DNA of 1,846 nt. Origin: Escherichia coli (GTDB lineage: Bacteria; Pseudomonadota; Gammaproteobacteria; Enterobacterales; Enterobacteriaceae). Each line of letters begins with the position of its first letter. The stretch's first letter is position 1. The notes beneath the pieces are model-generated. The model had not been told where the DNA came from and did no database searches. It saw nothing but the letters and a program-made list of their open reading frames with translations. Positions 1 through 1,846 of this stretch are shown here, piece after piece. The position numbers and the translations under genes were made by a program. The stretch lies in assembly GCF_003334255.1 (NCBI RefSeq), contig NZ_QOWU01000145.1. One strand, written 5' to 3'.

Positions 1-22
1 AGCTGATAGAAACAGAAGCCAC
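1..22 (-). CDS. insA: insA (IS1 transposition regulator) N-terminal fragment, 7 codons from a GTG start, truncated by window edge
   Basis: Minus strand from 22 reads GTG GCT TCT GTT TCT ATC AGC T, i.e. (M/V)ASVSIS, matching the known InsA N-terminus MASVSISCPSC. Preceded by GAGG. Only 22 nt are visible. Confidence 0.6.
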
Positions 23-42
23 TGGAGCACCTCAAAAACACC

Positions 43-48
43 ATCATA
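43..48 (-). promoter_or_regulatory. -10-like hexamer TATGAT in the IS1 insA promoter region, directing transcription leftward out of the window
   Basis: TATGAT on the minus strand lies 20 nt upstream of the insA GTG, with GAGG as a Shine-Dalgarno 7 nt before the GTG. The insA promoter is known to lie in the IS1 left end; the exact hexamer assignment is my inference. Confidence 0.5.
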
Positions 49-54
49 CACTAA

Positions 55-77
55 ATCAGTAAGTTGGCAGCATCACC
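55..77 (-). repeat. IS1 terminal inverted repeat IRL (about 23 bp), terminus at position 77 facing glcA
   Basis: Minus strand 77..55 reads GGTGATGCTGCCAACTTACTGAT, the known IS1 IRL. Exact extent of the IR is from established descriptions of IS1. Confidence 0.85.
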
Positions 78-1752
78 CTGGACCCAAATGTATATGCCGA
101 TGGGAGGACTGGGGCTATCCGCTCTGGTCGCCCTGATCCCGATAATATTCTTCTTCGTTGCACTCGCGGTATTACGTCTGAAAGGACATGTCGCTGGAGC
201 AATAACCCTTATATTATCTATCCTGATTGCAATATTCGCCTTTAAAATGCCGATTGATATGGCATTTGCTGCTGCGGGCTATGGCTTTATTTATGGATTA
301 TGGCCAATAGCGTGGATTATTGTCGCGGCGGTGTTCCTGTATAAATTAACCGTTGCCAGCGGGCAGTTCGATATTATCCGCAGCTCGGTTATCTCCATCA
401 CCGACGATCAGCGTTTGCAGGTGTTACTGATTGGTTTCTCCTTTGGTGCGTTGCTGGAAGGAGCGGCTGGCTTTGGTGCGCCGGTGGCGATTACCGGTGC
501 GCTGCTGGTGGGCCTGGGCTTCAAACCGTTATACGCGGCGGGGCTGTGTCTGATTGCCAATACTGCGCCGGTGGCGTTTGGTGCGTTGGGCGTGCCGATT
601 CTGGTCGCCGGTCAGGTAACGGGAATCGATCCGTTCCACATTGGCGCAATGGCGGGACGTCAGTTACCGTTCCTGTCGGTTCTTGTGCCGTTCTGGCTGG
701 TAGCAATGATGGACGGCTGGAAAGGGGTGAAAGAGACGTGGCCAGCGGCGCTGGTTGCTGGGGGAAGCTTCGCTGTCACTCAGTTCTTTACCTCTAACTA
801 TATTGGTCCGGAACTGCCGGATATTACTTCGGCGCTGGTGAGTATCGTCTCACTCGCTTTATTCCTTAAAGTCTGGCGGCCGAAAAATACCGAAACGGCA
901 ATCAGCATGGGACAATCCGCAGGTGCGATGGTGGTAAATAAGCCATCTTCTGGCGGTCCCGTGCCTTCAGAATATAGTCTGGGGCAAATCATTCGAGCGT
1001 GGTCACCGTTTTTAATCTTAACGGTGCTGGTCACCATCTGGACCATGAAGCCGTTTAAAGCGTTATTTGCTCCGGGCGGCGCGTTTTATTCACTGGTGAT
1101 TAATTTCCAGATCCCTCATTTGCATCAACAAGTGTTGAAAGCGGCACCCATTGTCGCCCAACCAACGCCAATGGATGCGGTGTTTAAATTCGACCCCCTC
1201 TCGGCTGGCGGCACCGCTATTTTTATTGCGGCGATTATCTCTATCTTCATCCTCGGTGTGGGGATCAAGAAAGGTATTGGCGTCTTTGCCGAAACGCTAA
1301 TTAGCTTGAAGTGGCCGATACTGTCGATTGGCATGGTGCTGGCGTTCGCCTTCGTCACCAACTATTCTGGCATGTCCACCACGCTGGCGCTGGTACTGGC
1401 AGGTACAGGCGTGATGTTCCCGTTCTTCTCACCGTTTCTCGGCTGGCTGGGCGTATTCCTTACCGGCTCGGACACCTCCTCTAACGCCCTGTTTGGTTCA
1501 CTGCAATCGACCACGGCGCAGCAAATCAACGTCTCTGACACCCTGCTGGTGGCAGCAAACACCAGCGGCGGCGTAACTGGCAAGATGATCTCCCCGCAAT
1601 CTATCGCCGTGGCCTGCGCCGCGACGGGCATGGTGGGCCGAGAATCTGAACTGTTCCGCTACACCGTGAAGCACAGTCTGATTTTTGCCAGCGTTATCGG
1701 CATTATCACCCTGCTGCAGGCGTATGTGTTTACCGGGATGTTAGTCTCGTAA
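64..1752 (+). CDS. glcA: Glycolate / L-lactate / D-lactate permease GlcA (LctP family, TC 2.A.14); 5' end abuts IS1 terminus and native start codon is absent
   Basis: Single long ORF ending at TAA 1750..1752. From [40 protein letters not shown] onward the translation matches my recollection of E. coli GlcA (about 560 aa, native N-terminus MVTWTQMYMP; homolog LldP starts MNLWQQNYDP). It is highly hydrophobic with a central hydrophilic loop, as expected for LctP permeases. The 64 coordinate is the ORF-track TTG, which lies inside IS1 sequence. The first in-frame ATGs are at 88, 94 and 100 (native Met7, Met9, Met11), so the true initiation site is uncertain. Confidence 0.93.
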
Positions 1753-1769
1753 ATCAATAAAGCCGGATG

Positions 1770-1792
1770 GGTGATGCTGCCAACTTACTGAT
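1770..1792 (+). repeat. IS1 terminal inverted repeat IRL (about 23 bp), terminus at 1770 facing glcA
   Basis: GGTGATGCTGCCAACTTACTGAT at 1770..1792. Confidence 0.85.
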
Positions 1793-1798
1793 TTAGTG

Positions 1799-1804
1799 TA
1801 TGAT
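1799..1804 (+). promoter_or_regulatory. -10-like hexamer TATGAT in the IS1 insA promoter region, directing transcription rightward out of the window
   Basis: TATGAT at 1799..1804, GAGG Shine-Dalgarno at 1814..1817, insA GTG at 1825. The spacing fits a promoter, leader and start arrangement. Hexamer assignment is inference. Confidence 0.5.
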
Positions 1805-1824
1805 GGTGTTTTTGAGGTGCTCCA

Positions 1825-1846
1825 GTGGCTTCTGTTTCTATCAGCT
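1825..1846 (+). CDS. insA: insA (IS1 transposition regulator) N-terminal fragment, 7 codons from a GTG start, truncated by window edge
   Basis: GTG GCT TCT GTT TCT ATC AGC T at 1825..1846 encodes (M/V)ASVSIS, matching the InsA N-terminus, and is preceded by GAGG. Confidence 0.6.

Follow-up and report, generated by a model that had tools for sequence, protein, structure and literature searches.

We analyzed a stretch of Escherichia coli DNA of 1846 nucleotides (referred to as the window), which is one complete contig and comprises the entire source record. In our judgment the likely explanation for this record is that two IS1 elements bracket glcA, the gene for glycolate permease, that the contig ends were set by an assembly at k = 77, that glcA is probably silenced and that the bracketed segment forms a passive substrate for inversion. 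The window is thus probably an ordinary case of an IS1-bracketed and inactivated glcA, not a dedicated switch.

Architecture of the window and its IS1 ends

Both ends of the record are formed by a perfect inverted repeat with an exact length of 78 nt (positions 1–78 versus 1769–1846), which cannot be attributed to chance. The IS1 share of this repeat is exactly 77 nt per side (1–77 and 1770–1846). The 78th pair (c78/g1769) consists of chromosomal bases that match by chance, as judged by comparison with the native flanks. Both arms agree in 77 out of 77 positions with the IRL end of IS1A as annotated in E. coli HS and, again over 77 out of 77 positions, with the IRL ends of both IS1 copies of strain K71-77. 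The arm termini carry the IS1 IRL sequence GGTGATGCTGCCAACTTACTGAT..., the terminal inverted repeat characteristic of the IS1 family, and the IRL ends of both arms face glcA. Apart from the arms, the window contains no repeated k-mer for k from 21 to 77. The features of the window are listed below in order of position.

1–77, minus strand: left IS1 end, first 77 nt (IRL), assigned by identity to IS1A of HS and to the K71-77 copies
70–43 and 22–20, minus strand: content of the left arm, a promoter-like site (70–43) and the insA GTG (22–20) with its first seven codons, running toward position 1
78–1769, plus strand: 1692 bp of chromosomal DNA carrying glcA, in the same linear order as E. coli HS (L001, 3002–4693) and without a mismatch to it (100% identity)
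78–86, plus strand: predicted left 9-bp target CTGGACCCA, from the junction compared with the native sequence
88–1752, plus strand: 5'-truncated glcA, glycolate permease, from NCBIfam NF007249 and the list of open reading frames
1760–1769, plus strand: partial 5' stem arm AAGCCGGATG, 10 of the 12 nt of the native hairpin, from the junction and the fold
1761–1769, plus strand: predicted right 9-bp target AGCCGGATG, from the junction compared with the native sequence
1770–1846, plus strand: right IS1 end, first 77 nt (IRL), assigned on the same basis as the left arm
1777–1804 and 1825 onward, plus strand: content of the right arm, a promoter-like site (1777–1804) and the insA GTG at 1825 with its first seven codons

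The insA start codon is located at nucleotide 56 of IS1 according to the HS annotation, which corresponds to a GTG at 1825 (plus strand) and at 22 (minus strand) of the window. With promoter-like sites at 1777–1804 (plus) and 70–43 (minus), both insA genes read outward from glcA, in agreement with a preliminary description of this DNA. That description also spoke of inverted IS1 copies. The IRL ends are indeed in perfect inversion, but the window reaches only 77 nt into each 768-nt copy, and the mutual inverted identity of the arms is perfect across these visible 77 nt per side only. Both arms break off where the record ends.

We explain the equal length of the arms by the way in which the contig was assembled. 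It would represent unique DNA from a short-read assembly, located between two oppositely oriented IS1 elements whose IRL ends point inward. An assembler working at k = 77 would have halted 77 nt into each IS1, unable to cross the multi-copy repeat. Because such an assembler stops a unique contig once it has run k bases into the edge of a repeat, the arm lengths are most simply regarded as technical and not as biological. Two biological remnants of equal length, each starting exactly at an IS1 terminus, are implausible. The break at nucleotide 77 of IS1, and not at the chance-matching base, suggests that the genome contains more IS1 copies with other flanks. In general, contigs ending in equal, perfect inverted repeats that match the terminus of an insertion sequence are to be read as assembly boundaries and not as short biological repeats.

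Insertion sites and state of glcA

The exact match to HS covers positions 79–1768 of the window as one string in L001, and positions 78 and 1769 are the native flanking bases. A megablast search with the whole window found the inner segment to be 100% identical in many HS-like strains as well, which points to E. coli sensu stricto. The lack of any further change in this segment fits recent insertions. The same search returned K71-77 as a match to the whole window with 100% coverage; this candidate was rejected, because separate pieces had been joined and the junctions in K71-77 differ.

The open reading frame of the segment belongs to GlcA at the equivalog level, with a score of 1271.7 bits for NF007249 (cut-off 1121) and a match to profile positions 4–560 of 560. 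The first in-frame ATG is at position 88, which yields a protein of 554 residues; further in-frame ATG codons are located at 94 and 100, position 64, within the IS1 part, holds an in-frame TTG, and the stop codon occupies positions 1750–1752. No Shine-Dalgarno-like motif was found within 20 nt upstream of any of these candidate starts (TTG 64, ATG 88, 94 and 100). In the protein collection searched, GlcA forms of 554, 552 and 550 residues are present, the 554-residue form on more than 1000 contigs, and the form starting at the TTG has no exact match.

The left IS1 interrupts the native glcA reading frame behind base 8, between ATGGTTAC and CTGG... (in the wider native context, between ...gaacaatATGGTTAC and CTGGACC...). 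IS1 stands in place of the native start codon, of codon 2 and of the entire upstream region. According to the annotated gene order, glcA is the last gene of glcDEFGBA. Because IS1 lies between glcB and glcA and the gene's own start codon is gone, glcA is most likely unexpressed; cut off from the glcDEFGBA promoter as well as from its own start, it is probably silent or a pseudogene. Comparable IS1-split glcA genes in 23CRST047 and 2273-PO3 are annotated as pseudogenes by PGAP. Some residual expression is possible, since the 554-residue form starting at ATG 88 is widely annotated as GlcA and hybrid promoters have been reported for IS1. Such hybrid promoters, created by IS1 insertions, are said to have been described by Prentki et al. 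in 1986.

The right IS1 is located 17 nt past the glcA stop codon, within the 5' arm of a hairpin stem. In the native sequence this hairpin downstream of glcA has a 12-bp stem (AAGCCGGATGAT-loop-ATCATCCGGCTT; L001, 4684–4714) and folds with −20.6 kcal/mol (z = −6.85). It is listed as terminator-like and is interrupted by the right IS1. The preliminary description mentioned neither the truncation of glcA by the left IS1 nor that the equal 77-nt arms are most simply understood as contig ends.

The target length of 9 bp was inferred from the 8–9 bp duplications of simple IS1 insertions at the glcA locus. On this basis a second copy of each predicted target (CTGGACCCA and AGCCGGATG) would be expected on the outer side of the respective IS1. 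The predicted outer junctions would read ...AACAATATGGTTACCTGGACCCA followed by GGTAATGACTCC... on the glcB side and ...GGAGTCATTACC followed by AGCCGGATGATCGTTAATATC... on the sslE side.

A promoter scan of the window yielded the two outward sites in the IRL ends together with three overlapping minus-strand matches inside glcA (345–297). The latter are within chance, the shuffled expectation being 1.6 ± 1.3. No outward promoter-like site was found in the inner segment by this consensus scan, which is not a proof of absence. Inversion would bring no known promoter into play, in line with the earlier expectation that it creates no obvious promoter switch. It had further been proposed that inversion changes which external promoter could read into glcA. 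This is formally right, but the polarity of IS1 makes external promoters reading into glcA of doubtful relevance.

IS1 at glcA in other genomes

For comparison we used 14 complete genomes with IS1 in or beside glcA, which were the best matches of a query containing the IRL. This set is biased toward the IRL of IS1, and the counts derived from it are descriptive and do not amount to a statistical hot-spot test. It contains 16 IS1 copies at 15 different sites, all of them (16/16) full length with positions 1–768. On this precedent both IS1 copies of the window are very probably complete 768-bp elements as well; a complete IS1 comprises insA and, by programmed frameshifting, insAB', together with an IRR end. 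Thirteen copies are located within approximately 510 bp downstream of glcA, two inside glcA and one upstream. A direct target duplication of 8–9 bp is kept in six of the 16 copies and missing in the other ten. IS1 prefers AT-rich targets, and the 3' spacer of glcA with a GC content of 30% (compared to 53.5% for glcA) fits this preference.

Among the ten copies without a duplication, those of PSS-12, ET650 and MLI110 connect the 3' spacer of glcA on one side to gspC on the other, and each of the three ends at a different point in gspC. They represent deletions next to IS1 that arose independently in the three strains and took away sslE, pppA and gspS2. Adjacent deletion, which the preliminary description had named as a possible outcome, is accordingly seen at the glcA locus itself. 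Four more of the ten, in S163-2, PigCaeca_1, A65EC and 2012EL-2448, adjoin DNA that is absent from the 40-kb HS region. The IS1 of 2012EL-2448 is found approximately 4 nt from the right site of the window, in the same hairpin and in the opposite orientation. Within approximately 25 nt of the glcA 5' end there are an IS1, an IS150 and one further junction. IS junctions appear to cluster at the two ends of glcA, and sslE and gsp genes are lost in association with them. The boundary between glcA and the sslE-gsp region seems to be a recurrent IS1 breakpoint, which may help to explain the patchy occurrence of SslE and type II secretion among strains.

K71-77 (NZ_CP040886.1) has, in this order, the glcB side (HS ...2814), IS1, HS 5897 to 2808 in reverse, IS1 and the sslE side (HS 5889 onward). 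The inverted segment (HS 5897 to 2808) contains an intact glcA that is reversed relative to glcB. The two IS1 copies are inverted, full length and without a single difference in 768 nt. The flanking 9-mers have the order ta, forward IS1, tb at one end and rc(ta), reverse IS1, rc(tb) at the other, i.e. the target duplications are exchanged between inner and outer positions. Read in this way, the sequence of K71-77 records an inversion of the glcA segment that has gone to completion between two bounding IS1 copies. The inversion between inverted IS1 copies that had been put forward for the window thus does occur at the glcA locus, though at other insertion sites. The window itself has no sign of a regulated switch.

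The junctions of the window were searched for in several collections. Both of them, as 70-mers, are absent from 5,426 complete RefSeq E. coli genomes; the matches with at least 80% coverage in these genomes were chance extensions only, with identities of 85–93%. The left junction was likewise not found among 72,556 PLSDB plasmids, and the exact junction strings (36- and 39-mers) are absent from the GTDB species-representative genomes, IMG/VR and the JGI metagenomes. Twenty contigs that encode the exact 552- or 550-residue form of GlcA contain neither junction. Since the junctions are missing from all genome, plasmid, viral and metagenome collections searched, the two insertions are confined to a lineage that has not been sampled. 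A literature search for an IS1-linked glcA inversion gave irrelevant matches only, in which GlcA stands for glucuronic acid. A paper on RR1/HB101 was considered as a precedent and discarded, its subject being the e14 P-segment and not IS1.

Origin of the arrangement and related systems

Two routes could have led to the arrangement in the window. Two independent IS1 insertions in opposite orientation may have occurred, after which a RecA-dependent crossover between the 768-bp repeats may invert the 1.7-kb segment. Alternatively, a single ancestral IS1 may have undergone intramolecular replicative transposition in trans, which would copy the element and invert the DNA in one step. IS1-family elements have been reported to transpose replicatively (PMC4471558, citing Turlan & Chandler 1995 for intramolecular events), and the trans pathway of intramolecular replicative transposition leaves a segment turned around between two IS copies in inverted orientation (PMC4471558). 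Whatever their origin, two inverted repeats of 768 bp at a distance of 1.7 kb would constitute a passive substrate for RecA-dependent inversion, and either IS1 may also trigger adjacent deletions. A derivation from the model yields that homologous inversion leaves all four flank-IS junctions unaltered. For this reason the way in which a segment faces between two inverted IS copies does not show in short-read contigs; its history is hidden as well, since the two routes leave identical target duplications.

The one-step origin is a sub-case of the main explanation, in which a single IS1 at one of the two sites transposed in trans into the other and glcA already faces away from glcB; it is set apart by history and current orientation alone. 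We regard it as possible, but rather doubtful. The trans product has the geometry of the window, with the same IS end pointing inward on both sides (pathway from PMC4471558, geometry derived). Neither insertion occurs alone in the 5,426 complete genomes, so that the two events may be linked, and a pair of identical IS1 copies forms the same pattern in K71-77. On the other hand, the glcA 3' spacer has been targeted repeatedly and independently (13 sites in approximately 510 bp), which makes a second insertion nearby not unlikely. Nor do target duplications separate this origin from two insertions followed by homologous inversion. We had considered them as a discriminator between homologous and duplicative inversion and dropped them, since both models, when worked through, result in the identical pattern.

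If at least one arm were a truncated IS1 remnant, or if the contig were an assembly artefact, there would be no realistic substrate for inversion. With 77 nt visible per side, and given that IS remnants occur in E. coli genomes, this reading deserves mention, but it is unlikely. Each of the 16 IS1 copies whose IRL lies near glcA in complete genomes spans the full length of the element, equal arms starting exactly at the IS1 terminus are the picture of two real junctions in a de Bruijn graph, and a chimera would not join the native sequence at two separate positions to exact IS1 ends. A composite element of the Tn1681 type, in which IS1-glcA-IS1 was transposed as a whole to another location, e.g. 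a plasmid, would have the matching geometry of two inverted IS1 around a short cargo, and two IRL ends (77 nt visible each) do flank glcA. We consider such a transposon very improbable. The same IS1-cargo junctions were found nowhere else in the 72,556 plasmids, the 5,426 E. coli genomes and the genome, viral and metagenome contigs searched, the cargo is a gene fragment without its start, and the ends are plain insertion points in native chromosomal sequence. A programmed switch that controls glcA by DNA inversion, comparable to fimS or hin, has in its favor that inverted repeats flank a gene, and nothing more. The repeats are transposon ends and not recombinase sites, and the arrangement is found in none of the 5,426 complete genomes and is thus not conserved. 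No open reading frame for a site-specific recombinase is present in the segment, GlcA being the sole substantial reading frame of the window. Without a recombinase, an inner outward promoter or conservation of the arrangement, we reject a programmed switch as next to inconceivable.

We thus return to two IS1 elements bracketing a probably silenced glcA. In this respect the window adds one more case of IS1 disrupting and bracketing a gene, with inverted repeats as the textbook source of inversions and deletions. There is a slim chance that the glcA segment flips in the source population, as an inversion polymorphism bounded by IS1, and that the glcA ends are true hot spots of IS insertion and rearrangement. 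If so, IS elements acting there time and again would eliminate glycolate uptake and the neighboring sslE and type II secretion genes or disconnect them, possibly under selection.

The closest relative of the arrangement is found in K71-77, with the same gene, the same element and two inverted IS1 copies around glcA. The insertion sites differ: in K71-77 they are located 180 bp upstream and approximately 445 bp downstream of an intact glcA, whereas glcA is truncated in the window. The IRR ends point inward in K71-77 and the IRL ends in the window, and the IS1 variant of K71-77 is 96.2% identical to IS1A. In K71-77 glcA is inverted with respect to glcB, whereas the window, which ends before the outer flanks, does not display the orientation of glcA. 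The IS1-adjacent deletions in PSS-12, ET650 and MLI110 involve the same element and the same locus, but the inner segment of the window is collinear and has no deletion.

Among known mobile systems, trans duplicative inversion has been described for IS26 and Tn4401 and is attributed also to the IS1 family (PMC4471558). Its geometry fits the window, and two independent insertions would yield the identical structure. A further counterpart are transposons of the Tn1681 and Tn9 type. Tn1681 is a compound transposon with inverted IS1 copies; the element is cited to So & McCarthy 1980. Elements of this type consist of two IS1 copies around a short non-IS segment, and in the window two IS1 ends flank such a segment. 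The cargo in the window, however, is part of a housekeeping gene that lacks its start and has apparently native boundaries.

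IS1 sites in the spacer 3' of glcA

Judged by the site counts in 14 sampled complete E. coli genomes, the spacer 3' of glcA looks like a candidate hot spot for IS1. Full-length IS1 occupies 13 distinct sites there, in both orientations (loci L001, L002 and L023–L034); the sample consists of the top matches to a query containing the IS1 left end and is thus biased. The reference for the native spacer is E. coli HS (L001):

L001 4677–5205, its IS1 removed: glcA 3' spacer, AT-rich (30% GC)

One of the 13, the IS1 site of strain 2012EL-2448, lies ~4 nt from the right-hand site of the window, in the same hairpin.

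Deletions and rearrangements next to glcA

In PSS-12 (L023), ET650 (L024) and MLI110 (L032), IS1-adjacent deletions extend from the glcA 3' spacer into gspC. Their endpoints on the gspC side differ, and the deletions are three independent events. Each has removed sslE, pppA and gspS2, so that the strain loses the metalloprotease SslE together with some of the type II secretion system that serves it.

Two further strains, S163-2 and A65EC, appear to lack the entire sslE-gsp block between glcA and tRNA-Phe.

L025 4233–5864: two IS1 variants 3' of glcA, E. coli S163-2

The S163-2 copies are different variants in tandem orientation, located 96 bp apart downstream of glcA; beyond them come a tyrosine integrase gene and tRNA-Phe. 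In A65EC (L028) there is one IS1, and an integrase of this type and tRNA-Phe again come after it.

An inversion was observed in E. coli K71-77:

L002 3001–6850 (NZ_CP040886.1): inverted glcA segment, 2.3 kb

Here an intact glcA is carried on a 2.3-kb segment whose orientation is reversed with respect to glcB. The segment is bracketed by two mutually identical, inverted IS1 copies, between which the 9-bp target sequences are swapped. The adjacent sslE and gspJ are annotated as fragments.

IS1 insertions within glcA and foreign sequence at its 5' end

Two strains carry simple IS1 insertions in the coding sequence, at different sites and with intact 9-bp duplications:

L029 2649–3416: IS1 in the glcA coding sequence, strain 23CRST047
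L030 2812–3579: IS1 in the glcA coding sequence, strain 2273-PO3

Both strains have their glcA annotated as a pseudogene; independent knock-outs of the gene by IS1 thus recur.

The 5' end of glcA may likewise be a recurrent insertion sequence target. In three draft or metagenome contigs it is adjoined by foreign DNA, at most ~25 nt from the IS1 junction of the window:

L005 1–31, L013 1–55 and L014 1–22: foreign sequence at the glcA 5' end, corresponding to window ~92–100

The foreign sequence of L013 is an IS150 end, as matches to annotated IS150 confirm; that of L005 is presumably the other IS150 end.
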